Notes: generated from the sequence alone by a model not told the origin. 64,000 bases of DNA from a bacterium (GCA_030685015.1 JAUXWS010000059.1:87052-151051), one strand, 5' to 3'; counted from the first letter of the stretch, positions 578 through 55,204 are shown. Numbers and translations are program-made.

Positions 578-2998
578 CTACTTGACCAGCAATACCTTTT
601 CGGCTCCGATGCGGGCGCCGTCCACCGCCAGCTCCACCAAGTAATGTCCGCTTGCCATGGCCGCGCCGTTGAACACGACCCGATGCTCGCCCGCTGCGAC
701 CGGACCATCCATCAAACGCGCAACCAGACGGCCCTGGAGATCGAACACGGACAGGCTGGCCCGGCCGGGTCGATCCAACTGGTAGCTGATGGTCGTCATT
801 GGATTGAAGGGGTTGGGCCAGGCGCCGGCGAGGCGGGCCGTCGCCGGACGCGCGCCGCCATCCGGCAGGGAATCGATCAGCTCCTCGTGGCCGAAACAAT
901 GGAAATTGAACTGGAAATTATTGAGGGGAATCAGGGCGTTGTTCACAACCCGGTAGCTGGACACCTCCTCCCAGGTGCGGGGCACCAGTGTCAGGTTGGG
1001 CACAGGTCGAGGATCACCCGGCGTCTGGAAGGATTTCAGTTCCAGGGGCAGGACTTCGATCCAGAAAGGCTGGGTGAAGGGCTCCAACAGGCCGGCCACG
1101 CTGACGCCGATCCAGTCCTCGCTGGCATCGCCGCCGGCGTAGCTCGGCGCATAGTTGTGGTCGGATTGATGGAGGAGCGTCCCATTGACGGGCAGGCCGC
1201 TCCAAACCTTCAGGCGCCAGGCACTGGCATCCTCGGGGGGGATGTTGAAGCTGGCGAAGCGAAGGCGCAGGCTGTCGAGGGCGTAGCCCATGCTGGGGCC
1301 CATCTGGGGTGGCTGGAAGCGCTGGGCGTAGCCCAGGCCCAGGGCGTCACCAGAACCGGTGGTGTGGAGGAATTCAGGATTGGTGACATCCCAGCCGTAA
1401 TCGTTGGCCAGTTCCAGGACGCCGGTCGGCCGCACGATGTAACTGGGCAGATTGAGGCGATCGTTGGGGGCGTAGCCGTCCGGCGTCATCAGGCGGATCT
1501 GTGGAAAGTGCAGGCTGGTGGCGTCCGGGGTCAGCGAGAAGGCGACGTCCACGTGCTGGTGCTGTTCCAGGCTGAAGGTGCCGCCCAGGGCTGTCGGCAG
1601 GTTGTCCATGTAGAGGGACCACTGGACATCCTGCGCCTGGTTGAGACCGAAGTTCTGGAAGGTGGCGGTGCCGGGAATGGGCCGCCCCAGGGTCCGCGGG
1701 TACGGCAGGCGGAACTCCGTCACACCCACGTCATTGGGCAACAGGGGAGATCCCACCACGCGGAAATCGTCCACGAAGAAGCCGGTTCCGGTGCCGCCGT
1801 CGTGGTTGTTGTCCGTCTGGACCCGGAAGCGGAAGAAGACGAGATTGCCGCCCAGGAAGCTCACGTTGGTGGAGCGTCCGTGGCCGCCCCCATCCATGAA
1901 GTGGTACCACTGCCCGCTGCCCGTTTCCGTGTCGTAGTAGTCATAGAAAAGGGAGCGCCAGACGAAACCATCCAGGCTGTACTCCAGCAGGAAGTAGTCG
2001 TCCAGGCTGCTGTCGCCGTCGCCATCGTAGTCCAGCAGGTCGACCTTGGTCCAGAAGTCGATGAGCATGGTGTAGTTGGCCGGCAGGAAGATGGGGGGGC
2101 TGTAGATCACGTTGCTGATGGGCACTGCCTGGTTGGCCACTTGACAATGCACGCTGAAGGGACTGCTGTGGAAGGTGGTGGAGACGGCCCAGTGGTCGCC
2201 CGCCGCCGGCACGCCGGAGTAATGAAGGGTGGGTCCGGGGGTGTCCACGCCGTCGGCATTGTTCTGCAGCAGGATGAGGGCTCCGTCCGCCACCTGGATG
2301 TTGTCCAGCTGCATGCCGGTCAGGGCATCGTCATCCGGAAAGGATGTGTAGTCGTCGCTGGCGAAGGCGAAACGGATGCGGGTGGCGGTGGAACGATAGG
2401 GCGTCAGGTCGCAGACGGCATTGCGCCAGGTGTTGCCCAGCCCGGCCCAGCCCGCCCGGATGCCATGGCCGAAGATTTCCCCGAAGGCGAAGGCGTTGCT
2501 TACCGTGTAGGCCGGCGTCGAGGGCGTGAGCAGCTGCCAGGGTCCGGCGCCCATCTTCACTTCCACGTGGCAGGCATCCCACCCATCGTAGGGGGCGGGG
2601 GCACCGGCCGGGCTCTCCAGCGCCCAGAAGAGGTTGAAGGTAAGCTGCGGGCTGGTGGTGGCGCTCAAATTGAGGGGCGGCAGCTCCAGGAAGAGCAGGG
2701 TGTGGTCCAGGTAGCCGCCCACGTCGACGCTGGCGGACCACCAGTTCCAGGAGCCATCGAAACTGTTGAAGCTGCTCATGTGCCAGGTGCTGCCCTGGTC
2801 GGTCAAGTCCTGGCTGGTCCAACCGTCAAAGCCGGTGATGAAGTTCACCTCGTAAAGTGTCGTGTCCGTCCGGCTGGCATCCCGCTGCACGGGGGGCGGG
2901 AAATCTCGCGTCTCCACCCGGAAGGGGCTGAAGCTTGCGTGGGCAAGTCCCGCCAGGAGCAGCAGGAGGCACAATGCAGAAGCGCGCCGCTTGGCCAT
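578..2998 (-). CDS. large secreted protein with a C-terminal FlgD-Ig / T9SS type-A-like sorting domain
   Basis: ORF 578..3103. Start moved to the ATG at 2998, which begins the signal peptide MAKRRASALCLLLLLAGLAHA. The C-terminal ~80 aa read WPNPFNPMTTISYQL...VFDLQGRLVARL...SGHYLVEL, typical of the Por/T9SS C-terminal sorting domain. Confidence 0.7.
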   Translation of the reverse strand: MAKRRASALCLLLLLAGLAHASFSPFRVETRDFPPPVQRDASRTDTTLYEVNFITGFDGWTSQDLTDQGSTWHMSSFNSFDGSWNWWSASVDVGGYLDHTLLFLELPPLNLSATTSPQLTFNLFWALESPAGAPAPYDGWDACHVEVKMGAGPWQLLTPSTPAYTVSNAFAFGEIFGHGIRAGWAGLGNTWRNAVCDLTPYRSTATRIRFAFASDDYTSFPDDDALTGMQLDNIQVADGALILLQNNADGVDTPGPTLHYSGVPAAGDHWAVSTTFHSSPFSVHCQVANQAVPISNVIYSPPIFLPANYTMLIDFWTKVDLLDYDGDGDSSLDDYFLLEYSLDGFVWRSLFYDYYDTETGSGQWYHFMDGGGHGRSTNVSFLGGNLVFFRFRVQTDNNHDGGTGTGFFVDDFRVVGSPLLPNDVGVTEFRLPYPRTLGRPIPGTATFQNFGLNQAQDVQWSLYMDNLPTALGGTFSLEQHQHVDVAFSLTPDATSLHFPQIRLMTPDGYAPNDRLNLPSYIVRPTGVLELANDYGWDVTNPEFLHTTGSGDALGLGYAQRFQPPQMGPSMGYALDSLRLRFASFNIPPEDASAWRLKVWSGLPVNGTLLHQSDHNYAPSYAGGDASEDWIGVSVAGLLEPFTQPFWIEVLPLELKSFQTPGDPRPVPNLTLVPRTWEEVSSYRVVNNALIPLNNFQFNFHCFGHEELIDSLPDGGARPATARLAGAWPNPFNPMTTISYQLDRPGRASLSVFDLQGRLVARLMDGPVAAGEHRVVFNGAAMASGHYLVELAVDGARIGAEKVLLVK

Positions 2999-3129
2999 GG
3001 GAAGTTCCTCCTCGACAACGCACCTGGAGCCATGATCAGGTGCCGTTGAATACCGCATGCGGCGGAAGGGTGAATCGTCCCTTCTCGCGTGGATCGCCGC
3101 CAATGTGTGGATCGGTTGCCGCCGGGCGC

Positions 3130-3369
3130 CTACCAGGCCTGCTCCACAATGATCTCCGGGTCAACCTCCTGGCGCAGGATGCGCTCGATCCCCGCCTTGA
3201 GCGTGACCGTGGAGGAGGGGCAGCCTGAGCAGGCGCCGCCCAGGCGCAGGAAGACCACCTTGTCGCGGATTTCGACCAGCTCGCAGAAGCCACCGTCCAT
3301 GGCCAGTGCGGGTGCGATCTTCTCTTCCAGGATCTGGGCGATCTGATCCGTCATCGTCGTGTCGCTCAT
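3130..3369 (-). CDS. NifU-like (Nfu-type) Fe-S cluster assembly domain protein
   Basis: Internal ATG within ORF 3130..3510. The product reads MSDTTMTDQIAQILEEKIAPALAMDGGFCELVEI...GGACSGCPSS, carrying the CxxC Nfu signature. Confidence 0.7.
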   Translation of the reverse strand: MSDTTMTDQIAQILEEKIAPALAMDGGFCELVEIRDKVVFLRLGGACSGCPSSTVTLKAGIERILRQEVDPEIIVEQAW

Positions 3370-18016: not shown

Positions 18017-18190
18017 TTCCATGAGTCCGTTCAGTGAACCCAAAAGCCTGCCGGGCTTGGACCTTCGACGGGATCACGCCCATGTCGAGGACCATACGGT
18101 GGGGGAATCGCGTCGCGTAACGGCACTTACTCGCAAGGAAACCGCGTCGAGAGGGGCCGACTGGCTCCCGGCCCCTGGTGGGAGATCATT

Positions 18191-21100
18191 ATGCCTTGCA
18201 GGTTGATCCCATTTTTCGCCCTCCTGCTTGTCCTGGTCGGTACCGCCCGGGTCCGGGCCGAGGGCTGGCAGGCCCGGGCGCAAGACTGGCACATGAAGCT
18301 GGTGGCCGAGGACGACCAGGGTTTGACCCTCAGCCTTCAGTTGGAGGAGAGCTTGGCCAAGGAGCTGGCGGATGGCCGCTTGCGGCCGGAGGCGCGGGGC
18401 GAGGACGATCCGCCCCTCGTCCTGGGCCGCTGGATCGCGCTGCCCGCCTCCGCCGTGGCGGATGTGGAGCCGGTGTCCCAGCTCTGGTCCCGGGCAAGCC
18501 CGGCGGGATCGCTTGACTGCTGCGATTTGTCGGCGCCCGTGCAGCGTCTGGGACAGCGCATGGCCAGCCTGGGCATCCAGCCCGTGGCCGATGACGGGAC
18601 CGTGCTGCTCGAGATGACCCTGCGCATCCGCTTCGTGGGGGGAGAGGCCGCCCAGCCTGGCGCCGTGCCCCGCGCCGGGTCGTGGCTGCAACTGGAGCGG
18701 GCCGGACGCCAGGTGCTTAATCCGGGCTTGACCCTGCGTCAACTGGCCGGACGCACGGCGGATCTGCCCCTGGGCCGTTATCTGGTGGTGGGCAAGGAGG
18801 CGTCCCTGACCTACATGGCGAACTGGGCCGCCTGGCGCCGCCAGCAGGGCTTCGAGGTCGCCCTTGTCTCCAGCGAGTCCCTGGGCGTGACCGGCAATTA
18901 CTGGGCGCCCATCCGCGACGCGGCCCAGGCCATGGCCGCGGACGAGGGGTTGGATTACCTGCTCCTGATCGGCGACATGAACATCGACCAATCCGGCTAT
19001 CATCTGCCCGGCGACCTGGTGCCCGGCGGCCAGTACGCGGAAACGAACTGGGGACGGCGCATCGTCAGCGATCACACCCTGGCCCTGCTGGAGGGGGACG
19101 ACTACTTCGCCGACGTGCTGGTGGGGCGCTTCTCCGCCGACAACGCCACCCAGGTCTCAATCATGGCCAGCCGCGCCCTGCTCTACGACCAGCAGCCGAC
19201 GGTGTCGGGGGATGCCTGGCTGAGCAAGGCCCTCATGGTCTACGACGTGGCGGGCGCCGCCAGCCGGCGCGAGACCTCCTTGTCCATCCGACAGCACCTG
19301 ATGGCGCGGGGAATTGCTCCCGTGGACACCATCCGCAACAACCGCTACACAAATCCGCAATCGCCCACCCTGGTCACCAATGCCATCAATGACGGCCGGG
19401 TGGTGGTGAACTACCGCGGTTACGGCTATCGCTATTCCTGGAACGGGCCGCTCTTCGGCGTGAGCAACATCAACCAGTTGTCCAACTACGGGCGGTGGCC
19501 GCTGGTGACCAGCATCGTCTGCGGGGGCGGGGATTTCGCCAGCGCCAATTACGACCCCTGCCTGGGCGAGGCCTTCCTGCGCGTGGGCTCGACCTCCGAG
19601 CCGAAAGGGGCCGTGGCCTTCATCGGGCCCTCCGAGGAGGACACCCACACCAGGTGGAACAACACCATCAACATGGGGATCTACCAAGGCCTGCTCGAAG
19701 AGGGCATCCGTGACGTGGGGGCCTTGATGGATCGCGGCAAGGCCGAGCTGTGGCACTGCTTTCCCAACCACCGCACCCAGATCTGGCACGACCCCGGCTC
19801 CCCCAGCCAGACGACGAACGCACCCTTCTACTTCTACTGCTACAACCTGTTGGGCGACCCCGGCACCCGCCTGCGGCTGGGCAGCCAGCGCACAGTGGCC
19901 CAACCCGCCTGGACGCCGCCGCCGGCGGGCTCCACCCAGCTCGAGCTGATGGTGAGCGACACGGAGGGACAGCCCGGCGCCGAGTTGTGGGTCTGCCTGA
20001 GCGGATCCGACAACCGCCGTCTGGCCCTGGCGCGGACGGATGCGGACGGACGGGCCGTGCTGGATTTCGCGCCGCTGGCCGTTGAGGCCTCCCACCTCGT
20101 CATCCACGGGGATGACTGGATCCCCCTCGATCTGGAGTTCACGCCCGCCCCGGCTGGATCCAACCTGGTCCTGCTGAACTGGTCCGCCGCGGCGGAGGAT
20201 AGCCTGCTGGCGGCCGGCGACGAGTTCGCCCTGGCGCTGAGGCTGCGTGAGGCCGGCGTGGCCGGCAGTCCGGCCGGGCGACGGCTCTCCGTCGAGGCGC
20301 TGGACGACGGACTGACCGTGCTGGTGGACGAGATGGACTTGCCCGCCCTGGCCTCCGGGGAGATCCTGGAAACGGAAGGGATGGCCCTGCGGCTTGCCCC
20401 CAGTGTGGAGCATGGCCGGGAACTGCCCATGCGCCTGACCTTGCGCGAGGCGGCGGGCGAGCTCCTGTGGGAACGGAGGCTGGTGGCCGTGGCGGCGGGG
20501 GCGAGGCCCGAGCTGCTGCAGTTGCAGACCTTGCCGCCCACGCCCGTGCCGGGGGCGGTGGTGGAGCTGCTCCTGACCTTCCGCAATGCGGGCCCGCTGC
20601 TCCTGGATGCCAACAGCTGCCGCCTCTTTCCATCCAGTACCGCCTGCACGATGTTGGACGCCGACGCCGCCCTCGACCCGCTGGAACCGGGCGCCGAGGG
20701 TGCCGCCTCCTTCCGCCTGCTGCTGGCGTCCGGCGTGCTGCCCGGGGCGCGACTCAACCTGGAACTCGTTTGCTTCCGCGCCGACCACTCCATGGCGGCC
20801 CGCCTGCCCATCACCCTGGCCGTGGGGGAGGCCGGCCCCACGGATCCGGTGGGCCCTGACGACCACGGCTATCTCATCTACCATCACGGCGACAGCTCGC
20901 CGCGGGCCCCCGTCTACGACTACCACGACATCACACAGCTGGGGACCGAGCTTCCCATGAACGACGAGGGCGCCATCTTCAACGATGACGGCGTGGACGG
21001 AGTCAGCCGCGTGCTGCCCCTGCCCTTCCCCTTTCGCTTCTACGGCGTGGACTACGACACGATCACGGTCTGCTCCAACGGCTGGATCGCCATGGGCGCG

Positions 21101-21841
21101 CAGCCGGATCACATCATCGGCCTCAACACGCCCATCCCCGCGGCCCAGGGGCCGGCCGCCATGGTCGCCGTGTTCTGGACCGACCTCTACAACTACTACG
21201 GCGGCTCCCGCTTCGGCCGCTGCTACCGCCATCACGACGAAGCGGAGCACACCTTCACGATCCAGTGGAACAACTTCCACCACACGGGCCATCCCTACCA
21301 GGACAACTGGTTCCAAGCCGTGCTGCGGGATCCCGCCTGGTGGCCCACGCCCACCAGCGACGGCGAGATCCTGCTGCAGTATCAGGACATCGTCACCACC
21401 TTCGGCGAACACATCTTCACGGTGGGGGTGGAGCGCCCGGACGAGGCGGCCGGGCTGCAGTACACCTTCAACGGCCAGTACCCGCCCGCCGGGCAGCCCG
21501 TCACCAGCCAGACGGCCCTGCTCATCACCACCGCGGAGCGCTTCGAGGAGACAGCCCTGCCAGCCGGGGAGCGCCCCCGCGCCCTGGCCATGGCGCCGGC
21601 CGCCCCCAATCCCTTCAATCCGGAGACCATCATCCGGCTGGAGCTGCCCAGCGCCGCTCCACTCCAGCTCAGCGTCTACAACCTTCGGGGCGAGCTGGTG
21701 CGACGGCTCCACAACGGCCCGGTGGCGGCCGGGCACCGCCAGTTCCGCTTTCACGCCGGCGGCCTGGCGGGCGGCGTCTATCTGGTGGAGGCGCGACAAG
21801 GAGGACACCACGTCGTGCAACGTGTGCTCCTCTTGCCCTGA
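18191..21841 (+). CDS. peptidase C25 (gingipain-like cysteine protease) family protein with a C-terminal FlgD-Ig/T9SS type-A-like sorting domain
   Basis: Signal peptide MPCRLIPFFALLLVLVGTARVRA. Gingipain-like blocks YLLLIGDMNID, NYRGYGYRYSWNG, TSIVCGGGDF. C-terminus APAAPNPFNPETIIRLELP...LSVYNLRGELVRRL...GVYLVEA. Confidence 0.85.
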   Translation: MPCRLIPFFALLLVLVGTARVRAEGWQARAQDWHMKLVAEDDQGLTLSLQLEESLAKELADGRLRPEARGEDDPPLVLGRWIALPASAVADVEPVSQLWSRASPAGSLDCCDLSAPVQRLGQRMASLGIQPVADDGTVLLEMTLRIRFVGGEAAQPGAVPRAGSWLQLERAGRQVLNPGLTLRQLAGRTADLPLGRYLVVGKEASLTYMANWAAWRRQQGFEVALVSSESLGVTGNYWAPIRDAAQAMAADEGLDYLLLIGDMNIDQSGYHLPGDLVPGGQYAETNWGRRIVSDHTLALLEGDDYFADVLVGRFSADNATQVSIMASRALLYDQQPTVSGDAWLSKALMVYDVAGAASRRETSLSIRQHLMARGIAPVDTIRNNRYTNPQSPTLVTNAINDGRVVVNYRGYGYRYSWNGPLFGVSNINQLSNYGRWPLVTSIVCGGGDFASANYDPCLGEAFLRVGSTSEPKGAVAFIGPSEEDTHTRWNNTINMGIYQGLLEEGIRDVGALMDRGKAELWHCFPNHRTQIWHDPGSPSQTTNAPFYFYCYNLLGDPGTRLRLGSQRTVAQPAWTPPPAGSTQLELMVSDTEGQPGAELWVCLSGSDNRRLALARTDADGRAVLDFAPLAVEASHLVIHGDDWIPLDLEFTPAPAGSNLVLLNWSAAAEDSLLAAGDEFALALRLREAGVAGSPAGRRLSVEALDDGLTVLVDEMDLPALASGEILETEGMALRLAPSVEHGRELPMRLTLREAAGELLWERRLVAVAAGARPELLQLQTLPPTPVPGAVVELLLTFRNAGPLLLDANSCRLFPSSTACTMLDADAALDPLEPGAEGAASFRLLLASGVLPGARLNLELVCFRADHSMAARLPITLAVGEAGPTDPVGPDDHGYLIYHHGDSSPRAPVYDYHDITQLGTELPMNDEGAIFNDDGVDGVSRVLPLPFPFRFYGVDYDTITVCSNGWIAMGAQPDHIIGLNTPIPAAQGPAAMVAVFWTDLYNYYGGSRFGRCYRHHDEAEHTFTIQWNNFHHTGHPYQDNWFQAVLRDPAWWPTPTSDGEILLQYQDIVTTFGEHIFTVGVERPDEAAGLQYTFNGQYPPAGQPVTSQTALLITTAERFEETALPAGERPRALAMAPAAPNPFNPETIIRLELPSAAPLQLSVYNLRGELVRRLHNGPVAAGHRQFRFHAGGLAGGVYLVEARQGGHHVVQRVLLLP

Positions 21842-27000: not shown

Positions 27001-27864
27001 TCAATTCCCTTTCTGCAGAGGCGATGTGCCCAGCAGGCGCAGGGCGTCCCGGAAGGCCGGACCCTCCACGTCCACCAGCTCCATGTCTCCCACGAAGTCA
27101 GGCAGGATGCGGCGGGCCAGGGCCTGGAAGGCCTCGGTGCGATCGCTGAAGACAAAGCGCCGGTGGCCCGGCTCCAGGTTGGGGGTGGCCAGGTCGCGTT
27201 CCGCCAGGATGGCCGCCAGCTCCCGCGCCGTGCCCTCCGCCGCGTCGACGATGCGCAGGCCCTCCCCCAGGACGCGGGCCATCGCGGGTTGAAGGAGCGG
27301 GTAGTGGGTGCAGCCCAGCACCAGGGTGTCGATGCGCGAGGGGCGGATGTCCCCCAGATAGTGGCGGATGACCGCCTCGGCCACCGGCCCGTCCACGATG
27401 CCGTCCTCCACCATGGGCACGAAGAGCGGACAGGCCCGGCTCAAGGTGCGCACCGAGGCGTCCAGCCGCGCCACGGCATCGGGATAAGCGCGGCTGGCCA
27501 CGGTGGAGGCCGTGCCCACCACCGCCACTTCGCCATTGCGCGTGGCCTCCACCGCCTGGCGGGCGCCCGCCTCGACCACGCCGATGACGGGGACGGGAAG
27601 CGCGTTGCGCAGGTCGGGCAGGGCCACGGCGCTCACCGTGTTGCAGGCGACGACAATGGCCTTTACCCGGTTGGCCAGCAGCCAGGCGGCGATCTCGCGG
27701 CTGAACTCGCGGATCACCCGCGGGCTGCGGATGCCGTAGGGGACGCGGGCGGTGTCGCCGAAGTAGATGAGATCCTCGCGGGGCAGCTGCGCCAGCACCT
27801 GGGCGACGACGGTGAGGCCGCCCACGCCGGAGTCGAACACGCCGATGGGCTGGGGGGAGGGCAT
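27001..27864 (-). CDS. murI: glutamate racemase
   Basis: ORF 27001..27960, with start at the ATG for MPSPQPIGVFDSGVGGLTV. Blocks ACNT (VVACNTVSAVAL) and GCTHYPLL match MurI. Confidence 0.85.
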   Translation of the reverse strand: MPSPQPIGVFDSGVGGLTVVAQVLAQLPREDLIYFGDTARVPYGIRSPRVIREFSREIAAWLLANRVKAIVVACNTVSAVALPDLRNALPVPVIGVVEAGARQAVEATRNGEVAVVGTASTVASRAYPDAVARLDASVRTLSRACPLFVPMVEDGIVDGPVAEAVIRHYLGDIRPSRIDTLVLGCTHYPLLQPAMARVLGEGLRIVDAAEGTARELAAILAERDLATPNLEPGHRRFVFSDRTEAFQALARRILPDFVGDMELVDVEGPAFRDALRLLGTSPLQKGN

Positions 27865-41934: not shown

Positions 41935-43722
41935 TCACTTGACCAGCATGACCTTCATCGCGTCGCGGGGCAGGCCGTCCACCACCAGCCGCACGAGGTA
42001 GAGGCCGCTGGCCAGCTCGGCGCCGTCCAGGGTGCGGGCGTGGGTGCCCGCCGCCTGGCGGCCCGCCTCAAGACGCCGCAGCTCCTGCCCCAGGGTGTTG
42101 AAGACGGCCAGCGCCACCGCGCCTTCCCGCTCCAGGCGATATTCCACCGTGGTGGTCGGATTGAAGGGGTTGGGCGTGGCCTGCACCAGGCGGAAGTCCT
42201 GCGGGCCGGCCGCCGGCGCCGGCGTCACGCCGGTCCCCATGAAGTAGTCCATGACGTGCTCGAGGAACATGGGCATGTTCATGGAACCGGTGACCGAGGA
42301 ATGGATGCGCGTGGCCTCAACGGGGAAACCGCAGAATATGGCGGCGTAGGGCGTGCCGGTGGTGTAAACCGCCGCCGGGGCGTTGGCCACCTGCCGCCAG
42401 GTGCCGAAGACCACGCCGGGTGCCGTCACGTCCAGCACGTCGGGATCCTGGCTGTTGTTGGCGCCCTGCACGCCGGTGATGACGAAGGCGGTGCCGTCGA
42501 ACCAGGTGTCGCCCGCCACGCCATCGATCACGAAGACGGAGCCGGCATCGGTGTCGGTCACGGTCACGCCGAAGTAGTCGGCCAGGAAGTCGGCCCGGGC
42601 GGGATTGGTGGACATGAACTGGCTCGACAAGAGCAGCCGTCCTCCGCCGTCCAGGAAGGTGCGCAGACCAGCCTCCTCGGCGTCGGTGACGTCGTTCTGC
42701 TTGATGCCGCCCAGCCACAGGATGCGCTCATAGCGGCCCATTTCGTCGGCGGCCAGGGGATTGTTCAAGCCGGACCAGACGTCGTGGCCGATCCCGGCCA
42801 GATCCAGGGCGGAGGTGACGAAGCTCTCGTTGTCGTCCATGCCGCCGTCGCTATCCACCAGCAAGGTGGCCGGGCGGCCAATGCGCTGGGTGTGGGTCAG
42901 CGTGCCCGTGGCCGTGCCGCCGTTGTAGGGGGCCGAGTACGCGAAGCTAAAGGTGGCCCAGTGCGGCTCGATGCCGGCGGCGACGGTGTAGACGAAGGGG
43001 CCGCTCCCTTCCACGGTCTCGCCCGGTTGGGCGGCTGGGAAGGTGACGGTGTTCTGGGTGATGGTCACGGCCGGGTCGCTGCAGGTCATGACCACCGTGC
43101 AGCCGTTGGCGGGGACGGCGATGGGGCTGTTGCGCAAGCTCAGGTCGTAGTGGATGGTCTCGCCGCCGTCGGGCCGGCCGTCCCCGTTGTCGTCGGAGAC
43201 GATGGCCAGCGATTGCACGGTGAACACAGGATAAGCAACCGACATGTACTGGTTGATGATGTTGTGCATCGCGCCTTCACTGAACCCGCTAGCCGTGTAG
43301 CGGACGATACCGTCTGTGTCCAGAATGACGTTGTATGGTATGTAGTTGTTGCCGTATTGGCTGTAGATGCTGGCGCAGCCCGTCAACACCAGGAAGGTGG
43401 GGTTGTACTGGTCCCAATGGGCATGCAGGGCGGCCGCTGAGGCGTTGTCCGTGTCGATGTGGACCAGTTCGAAGGCGGCGGGATCGTAGACTTGCTCAAA
43501 GTTGGTTTGAAGCACCGGAAACTCGGTGTTGCAGGAGGGTCACCACGTGGCACCGAAGTTTATCACCACCACCTTGCCCCGCTGGGCGTAGAGGTTCCAG
43601 CTGCCACCGTTCCAGTCGTTGCAGGTGAAGTCCGTCGGCGTTTGGCCCACCATCCAGGCGGCCTCAGCCGACAGGGCCATGCCCAGGGTGACCACGCCCA
43701 GCGCGATCGCGTTCTTCATCAT
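41935..43722 (-). CDS. candidate selenoprotein: secreted TlpA-like thioredoxin-fold oxidoreductase (UxxC active site) fused to a large C-terminal region with a FlgD-Ig/T9SS type-A-like sorting domain. In-frame UGA at 43540..43542 is read as Sec.
   Basis: ORFs 43540..43854 and 41935..43515 are in the same frame, separated only by TGA. Start at the ATG at 43722 with a GGGAGG RBS and signal peptide MMKNAIALGVVTLGMALSAEA. Read-through gives KVVVINFGATW-U-PSCNTEFPVLQ, which aligns with TlpA/ResA WCxPCRxExPxL. C-terminus TPNPFNPTTTVEYRLE...GLYLVRL. Confidence 0.65.
43511..43530 (-). promoter_or_regulatory. SECIS-like hairpin AA-CACCG-AGUUUC-CGGUG-CU; the core stem starts 11 nt 3-prime of the UGA at 43540..43542 (9 nt to the extended AA/UU stem)
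   Basis: Seen directly on the minus-strand mRNA. The core stem begins 11 nt after the UGA (9-nt spacer to the flanking AA/CU extension), and the loop contains GU. Position and shape fit the bacterial SECIS model. Confidence 0.5.
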
Positions 43723-43793
43723 TCCGCCTCCCTGATGGGTCCATGTATTGAACCATGGACCTGTGTTGTTCCGATTGAATGCTTTGTCAACCG

Positions 43794-43822
43794 CCGGGAG
43801 CATGATCGCACCATGCTCCCGG
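43794..43822. other. perfect 11-bp inverted repeat CCGGGAGCATG-N7-CATGCTCCCGG between the two paralogs
   Basis: Seen directly. It lies ~50 nt downstream of the copy-2 stop (43871) and ~70 nt upstream of the copy-1 start. No U-tract follows, so it may be a terminator-like or processing hairpin. Confidence 0.4.
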
Positions 43823-43870
43823 GAGATTTGGCAATTCCGAAGCAAATTCAGCAACTCCCGCGCCAGAAGA

Positions 43871-45595
43871 TCAGCGCACGGCCCGCACCTGGAAGTAGAG
43901 CTGTTCCACGCCGGGCAGGAACAGAACCGCGGGGGGCTGCTCCGTCTCCATCACCGGCTGTCCTGGAAAAGTCCAGGGCTGGGCCGATTGGTACACGCGA
44001 TATCCGGTGGCGCCGGGCACGGGCGTCCAATGCAGCGTGGCCGCGCCGGCGGTCATGCCCAGCGACAGGTCCGTCACCGGGTCCGGGGGCGTGGCGGGAT
44101 GGGCCGCGTGCCAGGCGAAGGCGCGCTGCAGGAAGCCGGCCATGGTCACGGAGGCCGGCAGCGGTCCATAGAGACGCAAGGCCTCGAGGGGGAATCCGCA
44201 GAAAATGCTGTTGAATCCGCCGCCCGCCAGGTAGGCCGCGGCGGGACCCAACGTCCCCTGGCGCCAAGCGGCCATCTGCACCGCCGGCGGCGTCACCGCG
44301 ATGACATCGGGATGCACGTTGTTGTTGGCCGCCGCCGCCCCCGACAGGATGAGGTCCATGCCGCCGAACCAGGGGTCGTCGGCCGTGGTGGTGGCCCAGA
44401 AGATGTTGCCGCCGGTGAGCGCCGTCGTTTGCACGCCGAAGCGCTGGGCGAGGAAGGGGGCGTTCTGCGCGTTGCTGGAGGCGTACTGGCTGGAAAGCAC
44501 CAGCAGGCCGCCACGGTCCAGGAAGGCCTCCAGCACGGCCCGCTCCGCCGCGGTGATGTCCGGGTTGCGGATGCCGCCCAGCCAGATGATGCGCTGGTAT
44601 CTCAGCGCCTCCACCTCGCTCAGGGCGCCCTGCTGGTCCAGGGCCCACAGGTCGGCGGCCACGCCCAGGGCCGAGAGCGCGTTCAGGGCGTAGCTCTCGT
44701 TGTCGTCCATCTCGCCGTCGGCATCCACCAGCAGCAGGTCGGGACGGGCGATGCGCTGCTGGACCAACAGGTTCTGCTCCCAGGTGCCGCCCTCGAAGTT
44801 GGCCGACACGTGGATCTGGAAATCCGCCCAGTGCGGCTCCGCTTCGGACGACACGATGAAACTGAAGGCCGGCGTCTGCACGACCTGGCCCGGTGCCATG
44901 GCCGCCACCGTGGCTTGCGCCACCTGCGGTGACAGGGCGCTGGAGGTGGTCGACCAACTGATGTTGATGGACTGGGCGGCCATGCCGTTGGGACTGTTGC
45001 GCAAGGTGAGGGCGAAGCTCACCTGCTCGCCGGGATCTGGCCGGCCGTCGCCGTTGTCGTCGGACAGGATGTCCACCGACAGCAGGTTGAAGAAGGGGTT
45101 GGGCAGGCTGAGATACTGCTGGATGACGGCGTGGATGGCCGACTCGTTGAAGCCCGAGGCGGTGTAGCGGACGATGCCCTCCGTGTCCAGCACCACGTTG
45201 TAGGGGATGTAGTTGTTGCCGTATTGATTGTAGATGCTGGCGCAGCCCACGAGGACGGGAAAGGTGGGGTTGTATTGGTTCCAGTGGGCGTGCAGGGCGG
45301 CGGCGCTGGCGTTGTCCGTGTCGATGTGGACGACTTCGAAGGCGGCGGGATCGTAGGAGGCCTCGAAGTTGGATTGCAACACCGGAAACTCGGTGTTACA
45401 AGACGGTCACCACGTGGCGCCGAAGTTGAGGAGGACCACCTTGCCGCGCTGGCTGTAGAGATTCCAGCTTTGGCCGTTCCAATCCGTGCAGGTGAAATCG
45501 GTGGGCGTGCTGCCGATGGTCCAGACGGCGGCCGCGGGCGCGCAAAGGACCATCGACAGAAACAGCCCGGTCAACAAACGGGCGCGGTGCTTCAT
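43871..45595 (-). CDS. candidate selenoprotein, paralog 2: secreted TlpA-like thioredoxin-fold (UxxC) protein with the same middle region and an FN3-like C-terminus. In-frame UGA at 45407..45409.
   Basis: ORFs 45407..45595 and 43871..45382 are in the same frame, separated only by TGA. Signal peptide MKHRARLLTGLFLSMVLCAPAAA. Read-through gives KVVLLNFGATW-U-PSCNTEFPVLQ, identical in the active-site block to copy 1. RBS AGGGGGGA. Confidence 0.65.
45378..45397 (-). promoter_or_regulatory. SECIS-like hairpin AACACCG-AGUUUC-CGGUGUU (7-bp stem) beginning 9 nt 3-prime of the UGA at 45407..45409
   Basis: Seen directly. The hairpin-forming nucleotides are identical to copy 1, while flanking synonymous positions differ. 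Confidence 0.5.
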
Positions 45596-45768
45596 TAATC
45601 CCCCTGGTTCACAAGCGGAACAAACGTAAGGGCTGAGGTGGCTCGCTCCAAGAGAAAAGAGCCATCACGTCAATTATTCAGCGGGCGGGGATAGGCCTGA
45701 TGACACCCAGGCAGCTTGATGTCCCACCCCCCCGACACCTTGCCGGCGAATCACAAAGGAGGTGTCCC

Positions 45769-46128
45769 ATGATCAAGCAGAAAACCAACAAGCCGGTGAT
45801 GGTCAGCTTCCGCCGGAGCGTGGGCGAGCTTCGCCTGCTGGGGCTGGTGGCCTGGGGCGGGCTGTGCCTGGATCTGGCCGGGCTGCGCGGCCGGGACGTG
45901 GCGCTGCGCCTGGGGGCGCCCCGCATGTGGATGGAGACGATGCTGGAGGCCGTGGCGCAGGCGGGATCCCGCCAGCTGGTGCTGGTGGATTTGGATCTCA
46001 GCGTCTTCCTGGGCGATCCAAGCGAACTGGCCGGCCGTCTGGAAACTTGGGCGGCGCGGCAGGGCGTCCGCCTGACCCGCCTGTCCACCCAGGGCCTGTC
46101 CGCCGCCGGGTCCGCACGGGCGGCATGA
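45769..46128 (+). CDS. hypothetical protein (119 aa)
   Basis: Strong RBS AAAGGAGG 7 nt upstream of the ATG at 45769. It sits inside ORF 45700..46128. Confidence 0.5.
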   Translation: MIKQKTNKPVMVSFRRSVGELRLLGLVAWGGLCLDLAGLRGRDVALRLGAPRMWMETMLEAVAQAGSRQLVLVDLDLSVFLGDPSELAGRLETWAARQGVRLTRLSTQGLSAAGSARAA

Positions 46129-49215: not shown

Positions 49216-50408
49216 TCAGGCCGTGCGCGTCACGGTCAGCCGCACCTGGCCGTGGTTGTTCTTGTAGAAGTTCCAGGCCTCGTTGGCGTGGCAGCAAAGG
49301 TAGCCGGCGCGGGACGGCGTGCGGCTGTGGGCCGTGCCGATGCGGAAGGTCTCCAGGGGAGCAGGCGTGCCGTCCGGCCCCGGATCGCCGCCGTTGGCGA
49401 TGGCGCCCATGAGGGCCATCCAGGGCTCCTGCTCGGCCCGCCGCGTGCCCCAGAAATCCGCCTCCTCGTTGCCGGTCACCTTCTTCACCAGTTGTTCGAA
49501 GCGACCCCAGACCCCCGCGGCGACGTGAATCAATTCACCCTTGTCGAAGCGGCCATCCTTGGTGCCCCCTGGGGCCGCAGACCAGGTCGCGGTCCATCCA
49601 CTGGCCCTCGGCACTGGACTCGCAAGTGGCGCCCGCCTACAGCCAGAGGCCAGTGATGTTCCAACGGTCGGCGGGCGTAAATGGCCAGCTGGCAGGATTC
49701 ACCCACGGCGAGCTGTTGCGTCCGCCGGCAGGGCGCTTGGAGGATGGGCGGATCCTCCAGGCGCTTGAGGGCGGTGGAATGGATGTGATCGTCGCCGCTC
49801 GTCAGTTTTGGCGTGTGGCGGGGCTGGGTGCGCAGCAGCTTGAAGACGCCGGAGCAAGAGTCGTGCAGGACGTCCTGGTGGTTGGGGCGGACCTGGCGCA
49901 GCATGCCCGGCTTGAAGGCCTAACCCTGGGCCTGGGCCTCCTCGATCATCCACTGCAGAGCGCCGTTGGAGAGGCCGGTCTCGGCGTAGCCGCCCCCCAC
50001 GTCGCAGTGCACGCCGCGCTTCCAGCGGTCGACGTCGGACAAGCCGGTCAGATCGGGCAGGCCGCAGGCCGACATCAGTCCGGCCAGACTGCGCACCGTG
50101 CAGGCGCCGCGGCTGAAGCCGATAAGGAAGAGGCGGCCGCCGTCCTGCACGTTGCGGCAGAGCCAGTGCCAGGCGCTGAGGATGTTCTTGCTCAGCCCTT
50201 CGCCCACGCTGCCGCCCTTGGCCTTCTCCCACCATCTGTCTTCGGTGCCCGCGCCGGGATGGTGTTAGGCCAACTGGTGCCTGCCCTGGGCGTCTGTCTC
50301 GGCCAGCGCGTTGTGGAGACGCACCACGTTGGCGGGGACAGGAGTGCCGCTCTCGTCCTGGTCGGGTGTGCTCCAGGTGCCGTCGCAGCAGATAACCAGC
50401 CGCCGCAT
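49216..50408 (-). pseudogene. disrupted DUF2235 (T6SS Tle1-lipase-like alpha/beta hydrolase) gene. In-frame TAA at 50265..50267 and TAG at 49920..49922, plus a frameshift in 49530..49614.
   Basis: N-terminal fragment MRRLVICCDGTWSTPD...NVVRL carries the DUF2235 CDGTW and NVxRL blocks. The next same-frame fragment has GFSRGA (GxSxG) and GVHCDVGGGY. Four consecutive ORF-track pieces lie on one strand. Confidence 0.5.
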
Positions 50409-50541: not shown

Positions 50542-52572
50542 TCATGGGCGCCGACGGTCCGGGTTGTGGAAGTAGTTGAAGCGCCAGAGCGCCTCGTCGC
50601 CATGGCAAGTGGCGCACAGGGTCTCGCTGCTCTCGGCCGTGAGGAATTGCACTCGTCCATGCTCACGACCTTCGCGCCAGGGCTGATGTGGATTGTGACA
50701 GGTGCGGCAATCCACATGCAGGTAGCGTCGCTCTTCCGGAACGATGGAGGGCAGCGGCCCCTTTTCCCAGGCGGGGTGGAACCAGGCCTTGGGCACGCGC
50801 TGTCCGACTCCGGAGTCGTGGTGGCAGGCCAAGCAGCCGATGGCGCCGGTTGTCCAATTGTCGGGCTGCCGTTCCCGGCTTCCTTCGGCCCAGTCCGATT
50901 CGGGCATGAGATGACCCAGGTTCGATCCGGCCACGGCGGAGCTGAGCAGGGCCGGCGTGGCCGCCTGGTGCGGACTGTGGCAGGCTGCGCAGGGATTGGG
51001 CGATTCGCCGGGCATTCCGCGCCGGTCGTGCATGCTGCCCAGGATGGAGCCCTGGTTGGTATGGCAGTCCATGCACAAGGCGCCGTCATGATTGCCCGCG
51101 CGAAGGAAACTGGAGGCATCGTCGCCGTTCATGCCCCGTGCCCATGCAGCCCCGACGGGACTCCACTGGTGTGGGTCGTGGCAGGTTTCGCAGCCGATGC
51201 GCTCATCCGCAAGGCGTGGCAGCCAGGAAGGCCGGAGGGCTCCGATTCCCCTTCCCACCGGATGGCTGAATTCACCCACGGAGCTGAGCCCCGGAGTGTT
51301 GGCTGCGGCATCCTCGTGACAGCGAAGGCACAGGCGCGTGGCCGGGCTTAGCAGGCCGGCCTCGGCGGGACCATCGGGACTGGTGGCCAGCACGTCGCGG
51401 CCGTGGGCATCGTGACAACTGCTGCAGCGCCACACCGACTGACCCGAGAGGGAGATGAAAAGCGGTTCGTCGGCGCCATGGTCGGAGGCCAGAATGGAAG
51501 CTTGGCCTGGGTGGCAACTCAGGCAAAGGCCATCTTCAGCCTGGTCCATGCGCCGCAGGAAACTGGTTCCCGGCGTGCCGGGCTGGCCTGCGTCGGTCTC
51601 GCCTCCGACGGACCACCGATGCGGATCGTGGCAGGTGATGCAAGCCACGTGGCCTTGTCGCAGGGGCAAGTCGCCACTTCCCTCCGGCACCGCGCCCAAG
51701 GGATGGCCCCAGGCATGCGCGGCGTCCTCGCTGTGGGATTGCGGCGCCGCGTGACAGCGTTGGCAAAGGGCGTTGCCGCGAGAGTCGGGCGAGGCGTTGG
51801 CGTGGGGCGCATGACAGGTCGAGCAGGCGTCGTGCTCCCCGGGCTTCCCACTGGACAGGCTGTGACGGGTGGACAGGACCTCCTGTTGCGGCTCATGGCA
51901 TGCGGCACACAGCCTGCCACGATCCTTGCCCTCCGTGTTCCGCGTGGGATGCGCGCTGTGCATCTTGTGGCAACTGAGGCATTCCACCCGGTCCCGCGGG
52001 GTGAAGGAATTGGTCAGCGAAGCGCCTCGACCATCCTTGAGCTGTGCGTGGATCGGGTGATTCCCGGCATTGCCCGCGTGGTCCGCATGACAGTTGAGGC
52101 AAAGCTCCGAGGCGAGAATGCCGTCTCGGATGAAGGGCGACAGCTCGTACTTGCGCCCCATTTTGTGCGTGTGCGGCGTGTGGCAGGTGCCGCAATAGAC
52201 GTCGCCATTCAGGTCGAGCGGAAGACTGCCCGTGGAAAAACCCTTGGGGAGTTTCCGCAAATGGATGTCGCCGGGGCGAAACGCAGTGCGGCTGTCCTTC
52301 ACGTAGCCATCGTGGCAGGACCAGCACATTTCTTCCGAGCTGTTGCGCGCCGGCTCGCCGTCCAGGATCACCGGGTTCTTCAGGGGAGGCAGGAAGGGCT
52401 CCAGGCGGTCAAAATCGTCGCCCCAGTTGATATGGCAGATGATGCACTGACGGAGGTGCTCGGCGCGCGATACCACGGCAAGGCTGTTGGATGAAGCACA
52501 CAGCAATGCCAGCAGGAGGACGCGAAAGGTCAGGTTCTGGCTTGGGATCACAAGGGGCCGGATCTTGGCCAT
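50542..52572 (-). CDS. multiheme c-type cytochrome with 18 CxxCH motifs, secreted
   Basis: Signal peptide MAKIRPLVIPSQNLTFRVLLLALLCASS. I counted 18 CxxCH motifs in the translation. Confidence 0.85.
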   Translation of the reverse strand: MAKIRPLVIPSQNLTFRVLLLALLCASSNSLAVVSRAEHLRQCIICHINWGDDFDRLEPFLPPLKNPVILDGEPARNSSEEMCWSCHDGYVKDSRTAFRPGDIHLRKLPKGFSTGSLPLDLNGDVYCGTCHTPHTHKMGRKYELSPFIRDGILASELCLNCHADHAGNAGNHPIHAQLKDGRGASLTNSFTPRDRVECLSCHKMHSAHPTRNTEGKDRGRLCAACHEPQQEVLSTRHSLSSGKPGEHDACSTCHAPHANASPDSRGNALCQRCHAAPQSHSEDAAHAWGHPLGAVPEGSGDLPLRQGHVACITCHDPHRWSVGGETDAGQPGTPGTSFLRRMDQAEDGLCLSCHPGQASILASDHGADEPLFISLSGQSVWRCSSCHDAHGRDVLATSPDGPAEAGLLSPATRLCLRCHEDAAANTPGLSSVGEFSHPVGRGIGALRPSWLPRLADERIGCETCHDPHQWSPVGAAWARGMNGDDASSFLRAGNHDGALCMDCHTNQGSILGSMHDRRGMPGESPNPCAACHSPHQAATPALLSSAVAGSNLGHLMPESDWAEGSRERQPDNWTTGAIGCLACHHDSGVGQRVPKAWFHPAWEKGPLPSIVPEERRYLHVDCRTCHNPHQPWREGREHGRVQFLTAESSETLCATCHGDEALWRFNYFHNPDRRRP

Positions 52573-52798
52573 GGAGGCCTCCGCGGGGATGAAGAGAATG
52601 TGCTTCCGTCAGAACAGGAGTCGGTGGCCAACGGCCGCAGGGGGCGATAGCCTCAATTGTGAAACTGTTGCCAAGTTAATCCCCGTCGTGGGCAATTCAA
52701 GTGCAAGCCAGCGGGTTTCCAACTTGACATGGCAGCTTTCGTCACAGACCTTGAATCGACGAAAGCCGTTGGCAAGTTGAGTTCATGCTGGCCTTGGG

Positions 52799-53542
52799 AT
52801 GTGTATGAAGATCCGGATCCTGTTCCTGTTTTTGTTGACGGCGGCGGTTGCCGCGGGCGCCGCCGGTGCCGGGCGGCCCTCTCCCAAGGGCGCATGCCTG
52901 GTCTGTCACAAGTTGAAGACGCCAAATTTGTACGCGGACTGGCACTCCTCCGCCCATGCCAAGAACGGAGTGACCTGCCTGGACTGCCATGAGGCGCGGG
53001 CCAGCGAACCGGATTCCTATGCCCATGGTGGAGCCACCATTTCACTTTTCGTGACCCCGAAGGATTGCGCCGGATGCCATGAGGTGGAGACAAGCCAGTA
53101 CGCGCGCTCCGGACACGCCGGCGCCGCTGTGGATCTGGAGAGCATCGACCCCGGGCTGCGCGCCAATTACGGCGAGCCCGGGTCCTGCAGCAAGTGCCAT
53201 GGTGGTCACGCCCGTCGCGATCCCGACCGGCCCATCGGCCAGCCCGTGGTGCCCCGTCCGGAACACGGCGTGGGTCGCCTGAACCAGGACGGATCGCTGG
53301 GGGCCTGCACGCCTTGTCATGCCGAACACCGCTTTGCCAGGGACGTGGCGCGCAAAGACTCAACTTGCACGGCCTGCCACGGGGAGGAACACCGTCCCCG
53401 GCATGAAGGCGCCATTCTTGCCGCCGGCGGACGGCGCGCGGGCGTGCCCCCCCTGGACAGTCAAGTGGCGTGCGCCAGTTGCCACATGTCCGTGGGGCGG
53501 GGGCGGCCAGTGTCGCATCTCATCCAGCGCAAGGGACAGTGA
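52799..53542 (+). CDS. multiheme c-type cytochrome with 7 CxxCH motifs, secreted
   Basis: Signal peptide MKIRILFLFLLTAAVAAGAAGA. Motifs CLVCH, CLDCH, CAGCH, CSKCH, CTPCH, CTACH and CASCH. Confidence 0.8.
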   Translation: MCMKIRILFLFLLTAAVAAGAAGAGRPSPKGACLVCHKLKTPNLYADWHSSAHAKNGVTCLDCHEARASEPDSYAHGGATISLFVTPKDCAGCHEVETSQYARSGHAGAAVDLESIDPGLRANYGEPGSCSKCHGGHARRDPDRPIGQPVVPRPEHGVGRLNQDGSLGACTPCHAEHRFARDVARKDSTCTACHGEEHRPRHEGAILAAGGRRAGVPPLDSQVACASCHMSVGRGRPVSHLIQRKGQ

Positions 53543-53605
53543 CCGCTGTGCTTCCGCACGTCCAGTTAGAGTGCCTCAGCCCATTCCAGTAGTCTCGGAG
53601 CCGAC

Positions 53606-55204
53606 ATGAACCTGGCGTACTTCAGAAACATCTGGCTGGCGGTGTTGCGCAGTCTGGCCATCAACAACATCAGTCGCGCCGGCGTGGCCATCACGACCTC
53701 GGCATTCGTCTCCTTCTTCTTCTTTGAGATCAGCATGCTGACCGGGGTCCTTCACAACCCCTACGTGGGCATGATCACCTACCTGGGCATTCCCATGCTG
53801 TTCATCCTGGGCCTGATGTTGATCCCGATCAGCTGGGTGTGGGAGGCACGACGCCGGAAATGCAGCATCAAGGCCCTGTTGTGGGAGAGGTTCGATCGAC
53901 GCATGCTGGAGCGTCGTGCGCGCGGCGCATTGGCCTTGCGTGTGCTGGTCATCATGAGCTTCGTCAATGTGGGCTTCATCAGCGTGGTGGGATTCCAGGC
54001 GGCCAAGCACATGGACGAATCTGAATTCTGCGGCACCACGTGCCACACGGTGATGGGTCCGGAATGGGCCGTGTATCAGGGGTCTCCGCACGCCCGTGTG
54101 CAATGCGTGCATTGTCACATCGGCGAAGGCGTGGGTGCCCTGGTGGACGCCAAGCTCAACGGCGCGTGGCAGATGATCGCCCTGTCCCTGGGCATCTATG
54201 AACGGCCGATTCCCACTCCGGTCCACAACTTGCGCCCGGCCCGCTTCACCTGCGAGAAGTGTCATTGGCCCGCGCTTTTCCACGGCAACCAATTCAAGAA
54301 CATCGTTCACTACGAAGAGGACGAAAGCTCCACGCCGCGCCACACGACCCTGATGATGAAGACCGGGTCGGGCGAGCCGGGGCATGAGCACGGCAGTCAT
54401 TGGCACGTGTCCCCCAGCAATCAAGTGCATTACGCGTCCCTGGATGACAAGGGCGAAACCATGGTCTGGGTTGACATGCGGTTGCCCGACGGAGGGGTGC
54501 GTCGCTACCACAACAAGTCCTTGTCGAAGGCGGACGCCGAGCGTGCTGGACTAACACACACGATGGACTGCGTGGATTGCCACAACCGGGCCACGCATGT
54601 CTTCGAGCTGCCTGCGGTTGCCGTGGATCAGCGGATTCGCCTGGGACTCATCAGCCGGGATCTGCCCTACATCAAGCGTCAGGCGCTGGCCGCTCTTGTG
54701 CAGGCGTACCCTGATCGCGACGCCGCGATGACGGGGATTGACGCAAGCATTCGCGGATTCTATCATCAGGAATACCCCGAACTTGCCATGGCCCGCGCCA
54801 CCGCCCTGGACTCCGCGGTCACGACGGTGCAGGCCATCCACCGGCGCAACATTCATCCGGACATGAAGGTGGTCTGGGGGAGCTACCCCAACCACCTGGG
54901 TCACGGCAGCACCTCAGGGGGCTGTTTTCGGTGTCACAATCAAGACATGGTGGATGATTCGGGAGCCGGCATCCCGGACGACTGCGTGCTCTGTCATTCG
55001 ATCCTCTCCAACGACGAGCCGGAGCCTTATCTCTATCTGTTCCGGCCGGACGAGTACGCGCCGCGGGAAACACAGGAGATGCAGCGATTCCTGCGGACGG
55101 AATTCTGGGAATACACACGGGATGCAGTGGAAAAGGGCGCCCGCCCGAATCAGTCACCACCGGACTGGTTCAACAAGGCGGCGGGCCGCGAATCCGGGGA
55201 TTGA
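53606..55204 (+). CDS. membrane-anchored multiheme cytochrome c with two N-terminal TM helices, 5 CxxCH and 1 CxxxCH; NapC/NirT or ImcH-like architecture
   Basis: TM helices VAITTSAFVSFFFF and ITYLGIPMLFILGLMLIPI. Heme motifs CGTTCH (CX3CH), CVHCH, CEKCH, CVDCH, CFRCH and CVLCH. Confidence 0.8.
   Translation: MNLAYFRNIWLAVLRSLAINNISRAGVAITTSAFVSFFFFEISMLTGVLHNPYVGMITYLGIPMLFILGLMLIPISWVWEARRRKCSIKALLWERFDRRMLERRARGALALRVLVIMSFVNVGFISVVGFQAAKHMDESEFCGTTCHTVMGPEWAVYQGSPHARVQCVHCHIGEGVGALVDAKLNGAWQMIALSLGIYERPIPTPVHNLRPARFTCEKCHWPALFHGNQFKNIVHYEEDESSTPRHTTLMMKTGSGEPGHEHGSHWHVSPSNQVHYASLDDKGETMVWVDMRLPDGGVRRYHNKSLSKADAERAGLTHTMDCVDCHNRATHVFELPAVAVDQRIRLGLISRDLPYIKRQALAALVQAYPDRDAAMTGIDASIRGFYHQEYPELAMARATALDSAVTTVQAIHRRNIHPDMKVVWGSYPNHLGHGSTSGGCFRCHNQDMVDDSGAGIPDDCVLCHSILSNDEPEPYLYLFRPDEYAPRETQEMQRFLRTEFWEYTRDAVEKGARPNQSPPDWFNKAAGRESGD

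Follow-up and report, generated by a model that had tools for sequence, protein, structure and literature searches.

Tandem genes for predicted exported redoxins carry in-frame UGA codons and a probable bacterial selenocysteine insertion hairpin

What does it mean when two neighbouring redoxin genes each carry a single in-frame TGA at the active site, with a short hairpin directly behind it in the mRNA? The two genes, tandem paralogs here called copy 1 and copy 2, lie on the minus strand of a 64,000-nucleotide stretch of bacterial DNA (GCA_030685015.1, JAUXWS010000059.1:87052-151051), which we call the window; positions are counted from its first letter and are collected in Table 1. An earlier, sequence-only reading of the window had proposed that the hairpin is a bacterial selenocysteine insertion sequence (bSECIS). 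Our analysis supports that proposal through the fit of the hairpin to the bSECIS model, its conservation in 28 of 28 UGA-containing homologs, the near-freezing of its synonymous sites, and its absence from homologs that have cysteine (Cys) at the position of the UGA. Each hairpin is very probably a bSECIS situated within the coding sequence for a selenoprotein.

Following the UGA, the mRNA of copy 1 reads CCC UCC UGC AAC ACC GAG UUU CCG GUG CUU and that of copy 2 CCG UCU UGU AAC ACC GAG UUU CCG GUG UUG CAA. Both contain the same 16-nt core, CACCG-AGUUUC-CGGUG, whose upper stem is perfect and free of bulges in either copy. Between the UGA and this 5-bp core lie 11 nt, and between the UGA and the apical loop 16 nt, again in both copies. 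The sequences, the identical core and the synonymous differences flanking it are as the sequence-only reading had described them; its comparison with the distance and the loop of the Escherichia coli fdhF element also held, the stem beginning at nt 15 (U of UGA being nt 1) and the loop containing G21-U22. Its measurements needed correction: the spacer, given as 9 nt or 9-11 nt, is 11 nt to the 5-bp core, and the stem of copy 2, which does extend further than that of copy 1, is 11 bp long and not 7 bp. In copy 1 the lower stem is disrupted, and this hairpin is the weakest found among the 28 UGA-containing homologs described below.

The position of the UGA within the protein is the next point to consider. 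An active-site motif, F-G-A-T-W-[TGA]-P-S-C, holds the TGA in both genes, and one and the same thioredoxin fold is interrupted where homologs have the catalytic Cys of their CxxC motif. The 60 codons 5' of the UGA vary synonymously among homologs while their amino acids are kept; this part is therefore translated in frame with the part downstream. Reassignment of UGA was excluded, as TGA is the commonest ordinary stop codon in the window and terminates both paralogs. Scanning the window revealed only these two in-frame TGAs of this kind, in addition to the murI stop at 27003, where the next gene follows in the same frame.

Selection on the RNA cannot be read from the two paralogs alone. It had been inferred earlier from the six codons for N-T-E-F-P-V, which are identical in the two copies, but 175 of the 263 degenerate codons for shared amino acids (66.5%) agree in the two genes, and shortly past the hairpin there are runs of 7 and 8 codons without a difference. 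Given that background and those longer runs, six identical codons are unremarkable and to be expected by chance, and we rejected this comparison as evidence for selection at the RNA level. On the evidence of the window the hairpin is only weakly non-random; with the 28 homologs it is clearly so.

These homologs were obtained from a protein search that returned about 48 close relatives, for which the DNA was taken from genome and metagenome collections. The resulting set comprised 28 distinct UGA-containing genes, 24 of which were used in some tests, and five Cys-containing genes. Most of the relatives are 'truncated', with 502-528 aa and an N-terminus V/M-L-Q-(T/S)-(N/D)-F-E that is encoded directly past the hairpin; a few are full-length (568-604 aa) and have W-C-G-P-C. 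The 28 UGA-containing genes come from Delongbacteria-like metagenome-assembled genomes (MAGs) and from one KSB1 MAG, and some of the relatives are labelled Candidatus Delongbacteria by NCBI. The UGA is kept in 28/28 UGA forms, and in every one of them the minimum free energy (MFE) structure is a hairpin with its apical loop at nt 20-25, starting 16-17 nt past the UGA. Of the loops, 21 are AGUUUC and five are a GUU triloop with a closing A-U pair; AGUUCC and AGUUG each occur once. Bulged G, A or C residues are found on the 3' side of the upper stem in some homologs.

In divergent members the same hairpin is also built from different stem sequences. In the KSB1 homolog (L007), which has 38% amino-acid identity and the peptide T-V-E-L-P-Q, a 7-bp stem ACUGUGG/CCACAGU carries the loop AGUUG. 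Stem pairs differ likewise in L006 (15G-30C and 14G-31C) and L060_4116 (15A-30U and 14G-31C), and L003_4344 and L004 form a GCGG/CCGC stem with a 1-nt shift in register. Pairing in the fixed register was found in 83% of cells, against 32-51% when the 3' partner was slid by 1-3 columns. On an ungapped alignment, RNAalifold recovered part of the stem with a covariation term of approximately zero. A covariance model built on the hairpin matched only homologous genes, with lower scores for the Cys forms, and found no other SECIS-like site in 537 kb.

Synonymous conservation is the decisive test, and it shows that change in the codons of the upper stem-loop is suppressed about five-fold. Of the 160 windows across the 164 columns in which a degenerate amino acid is conserved, the one made up of the codons for N, E, F, P and V has the lowest entropy. 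By parsimony on a neighbour-joining gene tree these codons have undergone 4 synonymous changes, against an expectation of about 20 (column resampling, P about 5e-5). Free variation of the hairpin at synonymous sites, which the sequence-only reading had named as the outcome contrary to its proposal, is thus not the case. The codons on either side change as fast as the average or faster, with six changes at P+1, seven at C+3, eight at L+10 and six at Q+11. Codon choice within the hairpin departs from that elsewhere in the same genes: the loop Phe codon is UUU in 23/24 genes (13% elsewhere), Glu is GAG in 24/24 (67% elsewhere) and Pro is CCG in 24/24 (38% elsewhere).

The lower stem behaves differently. 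Its Cys +3, Leu +10 and Gln +11 codons, with 7, 8 and 6 changes, compare with means of 3.0 for two-fold and 5.6 for four- or six-fold degenerate codons; they change faster than the gene average, yet they prefer rare AU-ending codons. Cys is UGU in 16/24 genes (10% elsewhere), Gln is CAA in 12/24 (11% elsewhere) and Leu is a rare codon in 20/23 (about 17% elsewhere). Two structural classes can be distinguished, one with a continuous stem of 10-11 bp and UUG or UUA, the other with a 5-bp stem, a 3x3 internal loop and CUU.

The five W-C-G-P-C homologs serve as a control. At the hairpin site their residues vary, N[ADES]E[MF]P[EY]LQ, and the upper stem is missing; the peptide N-T-E-F-P-V is conserved only in the UGA forms. 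What the Cys forms keep is the CUGC/GCAG pairing, and this is because UGC...CUG CAG are common codons. One Cys form, P0043 (L065:1786, type B), reads W-C-G-P-C-H-L-E-F-P-V-L-Q and has kept both E-F-P-V-L-Q and GAG UUU, with a stem that is down to 3 bp as CCC GUC replaces CCG GUG. Here a switch from selenocysteine (Sec) to Cys may have left a 'fossil' SECIS in decay.

How well does the hairpin agree with SECIS elements already described? The consensus model of bSECISearch (Zhang and Gladyshev 2005), as outlined in PMC13188914, has a loop of 3-9 nt on a stem of 4-16 bp, a G at loop position 1 or 2 with, as a rule, G or U after it (N1-G-[G|U]-N-N2), 16-37 nt between the UGA and the loop, and an MFE of -7.5 kcal/mol or lower. 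Both copies have a stem-loop within the coding region, directly past an in-frame UGA that aligns with Cys of homologs. Both loops are 6 nt, on a stem of 5 bp for copy 1 and of 11 bp for copy 2; within A-G-U-U-U-C the G is second and is followed by U, A20 and U24 can pair, and the motif is present in 28/28 homologs. The spacing of 16 nt equals the lower limit of the model. At -15.2 to -16.0 kcal/mol, copy 2 lies below the energy threshold.

The E. coli fdhF mini-SECIS consists of a 17-nt upper stem-loop at nt 15-31, 11 nt past the UGA, with essential G23/U24 in the loop (PMC8659212). Like it, the hairpins studied here are situated in the coding region directly past the putative Sec-UGA, begin their upper stem-loop at nt 15, have C after the UGA and present a 6-nt loop of the form A-G-(G/U)-U-N-N with G-U. 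Copy 1 also shares with it a folding energy that is not distinguishable from shuffles. Unlike fdhF, both hairpins lack a bulged U (U17 in the 5' arm of fdhF), their loop is AGUUUC instead of AGGUCU, they have no similarity in primary sequence, and the host protein is a redoxin and not a formate dehydrogenase. The hairpin would therefore work like the fdhF SECIS without being its homolog in sequence or structure, given its perfect upper stem without the bulged U.

Several results weigh against reading the hairpins as bSECIS elements. Copy 1 folds with only -7.2 kcal/mol (z = -1.2), and 23/200 dinucleotide shuffles do as well; as a hairpin alone it falls just short of the model threshold, reaching -7.7 to -9.6 kcal/mol with 3' context. 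Most homologs have an MFE no better than that of synonymous resampling. Among the 1458 UGA triplets of this 68% GC window, 12.6% are followed by some simple hairpin that complies with the model, exactly the geometry of the two copies being found after 0.96%. The covariation score was not significant, being reached by 148/500 shuffles with 24 sequences and by 53/500 with 28. Three of the five upper-stem pairs (16-29, 17-28 and 19-26) follow directly from the amino acids T-E-F-P-V. None of selA, selB, selD and tRNA-Sec is present within the 64 kb window. Rfam gave no match at gathering score in the window, and at E up to 10 only one spurious snoRNA match in 43300-45700.

Two of these results need to be read with care. 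The region varies too little for strong covariation statistics, and six sequences are in a 1-nt shifted register, which a fixed alignment cannot capture. As for folding energy, copy 2 (-16.0 kcal/mol, z = -3.8) was matched by 0/200 shuffles, and synonymous-codon resampling that kept the peptide and each gene's own usage was significant for neither gene (copy 1, p = 0.62; copy 2, p = 0.11), GC-rich alternative codons reaching equal stability by other folds. Energies no better than shuffled controls had been put forward earlier as a mark against the hairpin; this applies to copy 1 and not to copy 2, but the measure is not valid, since the proven fdhF SECIS itself fails the shuffle test (z = -0.94). 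With copy 1, most homologs and fdhF all failing, we discarded folding energy as a discriminator against either kind of control.

Could the hairpin have no function in the RNA and simply be a by-product of the conserved peptide N-T-E-F-P-V and a GC-rich codon bias? The amino-acid-dictated pairs, the weak covariation and the resampled energies all favour this, as do the common codons ACC, CCG and GUG and the occurrence of the lower CUGC/GCAG pairing in Cys forms as well. We nonetheless consider it very unlikely: the peptide is conserved in the UGA forms only and varies in the Cys forms, the roughly five-fold synonymous suppression is specific to these codons, the rare UUU and the GAG are all but invariant there, and the KSB1 homolog has a 7-bp hairpin at the same place in spite of its different peptide. 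An alternative that grants the hairpin a role is that it stimulates read-through of the UGA without selenocysteine, for example by insertion of near-cognate Trp or Cys. C follows the UGA in 24/28 genes, a leaky termination context, and the window holds no Sec machinery; this explanation becomes highly improbable when set against the alignment of the UGA with the catalytic Cys of CxxC, a classic Cys/Sec pair, against a loop that has the SelB-recognised G-U at the canonical distance, and against the existence of UxxC TlpA-like selenoproteins as an established class.

The UGA might also be a true stop, so that the genes are either pseudogenes or encode a peptide of about 60 aa and a separate protein of 500-526 aa, with a hairpin that is incidental or serves re-initiation. 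Public annotation makes exactly this split (open reading frames of 57-62 aa and 502-528 aa), and a GTG or TTG codon is available within the 3' arm of the hairpin; in many homologs, however, the annotated 'start' codon is CTT, which is not a start codon. The split would cut through the CxxC active site of one thioredoxin fold, full-length Cys homologs align across it, and the same UGA is found in 28 genes with purifying selection on both sides, all of which makes a true stop extremely improbable.

If the hairpins are bSECIS elements, the established E. coli/Moorella model suggests how they would act. SelB-GTP with Sec-tRNA(Sec) would bind the apical loop, A-G21-U22-U-U-C, atop the 5-bp upper stem. 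With the UGA, 11 nt 5' of the stem, in the ribosomal A site, the tethered SelB would deliver the Sec-tRNA in competition with release factor 2 (RF2), and selenocysteine would become residue 61 of copy 1 and residue 63 of copy 2, after which the ribosome would melt the hairpin and translate N-T-E-F-P-V-L-Q, the start of the helix after the active site. Both SelB binding and selenocysteine insertion at these UGAs are predictions made from this analogy.

The proteins that would result have N-termini resembling signal peptides. In copy 1 a TlpA/ResA-like thioredoxin-fold domain with W-U61-P-S-C is followed by a beta-sandwich, a GATase1-like alpha/beta domain and a C-terminal sorting domain of the type IX secretion system (T9SS); copy 2 has the redoxin domain (W-U63-P-S-C) and the same middle domains, but differs at the C-terminus and is without the T9SS tail. 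Identity between the paralogs is 45% overall and about 80% within the redoxin domain. Pfam searches matched copy 1 to AhpC-TSA (9.8e-13), Redoxin (3e-12) and Por_Secre_tail, E-values for the redoxin domain over both copies being 1e-12 to 4e-14 (AhpC-TSA/Redoxin), and the T9SS tail of copy 1 scored 27 bits with NCBIfam TIGR04183 (cutoff 23). In a profile search of the PDB, ResA proteins were the best sequence matches for the redoxin domain. The approximately 430 residues past that domain matched no Pfam family except for the T9SS tail of copy 1. An AlphaFold (AF2) model of the 431 C-terminal residues of copy 1 (165-595; predicted local distance difference test score, pLDDT, 90.5) predicts an immunoglobulin-like beta-sandwich, an alpha/beta domain and a C-terminal beta-sandwich tail corresponding to the T9SS C-terminal domain; for the modelled alpha/beta domain the best single-domain fold matches were the IFT52 GIFT domain and the TrpG glutamine amidotransferase. 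Invariant residues in the C-terminal region include D-G-R-P-D-x-G-E and W-L-G-G…S-S-Q. The products are thus predicted to be exported TlpA/ResA-like thiol-disulfide oxidoreductases with a U-x-x-C redox centre.

Table 1. Features of the two redoxin genes, their hairpins and the neighbouring genes in the window.
Feature	Position	Strand	Description
Copy 1 gene (paralog type A)	41935..43722	minus	595 codons including UGA read-through; ordinary TGA stop
Copy 1 in-frame UGA	43540..43542	minus	codon 61; aligned to first Cys of WCGPC in Cys homologs
Copy 1 hairpin core	43513..43528	minus	5-bp stem CACCG/CGGUG, loop AGUUUC; nt 15-30 (U of UGA = nt 1)
Copy 1 5' arm CACCG	43528-43524	minus	
Copy 1 loop AGUUUC	43523-43518	minus	
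Copy 1 3' arm CGGUG	43517-43513	minus	
Copy 1 modelled C-terminal region	41938-43230	minus	residues 165-595
Copy 2 gene (paralog type B)	43871..45595	minus	574 codons including UGA read-through
Copy 2 in-frame UGA	45407..45409	minus	codon 63
Copy 2 hairpin	45374..45401	minus	11-bp stem UUGUAACACCG/CGGUGUUGCAA, one G-U pair; nt 9-36 from UGA
Copy 2 loop AGUUUC	45390-45385	minus	
Small divergent open reading frame	45700-46128	plus	142 aa from ATG
Phospholipase-like fragment	49923-50264	minus	114 aa; match to type VI secretion system (T6SS) Tle1-like phospholipase domain
MtrC/MtrF-like protein	50545-52608	minus	paired CXXCH motifs
NapC/NirT-like protein	53570-55201	plus	
T9SS-tailed protein	581-3160	minus	
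T9SS-tailed protein	18038-21838	plus	

Thioredoxin-fold selenoproteins with a UxxC motif are long established, and PMC13188914 includes among them TlpA-like families described as 'thiol-disulfide isomerase-like' and 'Prx-like thiol:disulfide oxidoreductase'. The window proteins resemble these in having a TlpA/ResA-like fold, a predicted Sec in place of the first Cys of CxxC and homologs with Cys (W-U-P-S-C vs W-C-G-P-C). They are unlike them in that the motif is W-U-P-S-C and not UGC, in the fusion of some 430 further residues (beta-sandwich, GATase1-like domain and, in copy 1, the T9SS tail), and in being encoded by 2-3 paralogs in tandem. None of the selenoprotein models curated in NCBIfam was matched at its cutoff, NF041054 (WAxxUGC_long) giving 29-40 bits against 300, and the ResA model of the same collection gave 62-69 bits against a cutoff of 170. 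Our search of the literature found no link between Delongbacteria and selenocysteine, nor between T9SS and selenoproteins.

It follows that the hairpins of the window are very probably bSECIS elements of the ordinary kind, in a family of multidomain and partly T9SS-targeted selenoproteins that is not yet catalogued, because no curated NCBIfam model is reached, public annotation truncates the genes and no literature makes the connection. Our broader picture of this family is tentative, and we place slightly less than even confidence in it: an undescribed, lineage-restricted group, confined to the Delongbacteria-like MAGs and the one KSB1 MAG, of exported multidomain selenoproteins that combine a TlpA-like UxxC redoxin with a beta-sandwich and a GATase1/GIFT-like domain, that form tandem arrays of 2-3 paralogs, in some cases as T9SS cargo, and that switch between Sec and Cys from paralog to paralog.

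Gene order around the arrays is kept among the homologous loci: adh_short, a small divergent open reading frame, 2-3 paralogs, and then RRM, PNPOx, MFS and M48, with the same order in the window. The small open reading frame, divergent and upstream of copy 2 in the window, has no Pfam or NCBIfam match; six syntenic loci (L058-L062 and L064) have at this position, and in this orientation, a gene of about 115 aa that is likewise without a family, which is also found in a seventh place. It could serve the paralog array as a conserved partner or as a regulator. Further along the window, the multihaem cytochrome genes (50545-55201) are located at the start of a stretch of lower GC content (0.58-0.62 at 52-60 kb, about 0.68 elsewhere). 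One of the two further T9SS-tailed proteins in the window is a 1267-aa C25 (gingipain-like) peptidase, and on account of these proteins the organism appears to use the type IX secretion system extensively.

Two other in-frame TGAs were encountered outside the family. A pyruvate,phosphate dikinase gene at L059:2118 (contig ERZ27284379 k139_357404) has one in …AFGAEGIGL[TGA]RTEHMFFGEG…, at what we take to be the Cys position of these enzymes (GIGLCRTEHMF). GC content at third codon positions is high on both flanks, the gene caller splits the gene into 600 aa and 353 aa, and the downstream fold is weak (-8.7 kcal/mol); this could be a further selenoprotein of the lineage or an assembly error. A second thioredoxin-like candidate, …LIVYRGGW[TGA]PHCNKQLVQLQ… at L055:5875, is on an unrelated contig that was fetched through a T9SS-tail match.

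In summary, the recoding mechanism proposed here is textbook and will not surprise specialists; the points of note are the architecture of the family and the constraint that a SECIS places on coding sequence. In public databases each gene currently appears as a fragment of about 60 aa and a 500-526 aa protein labelled 'hypothetical' or 'T9SS sorting domain'. Once the UGA is recognised together with its hairpin, the genes give secreted redoxins at their full length of 574-595 aa, and the lineage is marked as one that uses selenium. If some members are indeed T9SS cargo, they would be the first selenoproteins to reach the cell surface by way of the type IX secretion system. It is unusual for a selenoprotein at the cell surface, or one exported by T9SS, to be joined to a GATase1-like domain, and this architecture could point to extracellular thiol/selenol redox activity. 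The family also illustrates how a SECIS within a coding region constrains synonymous sites and the encoded peptide alike.

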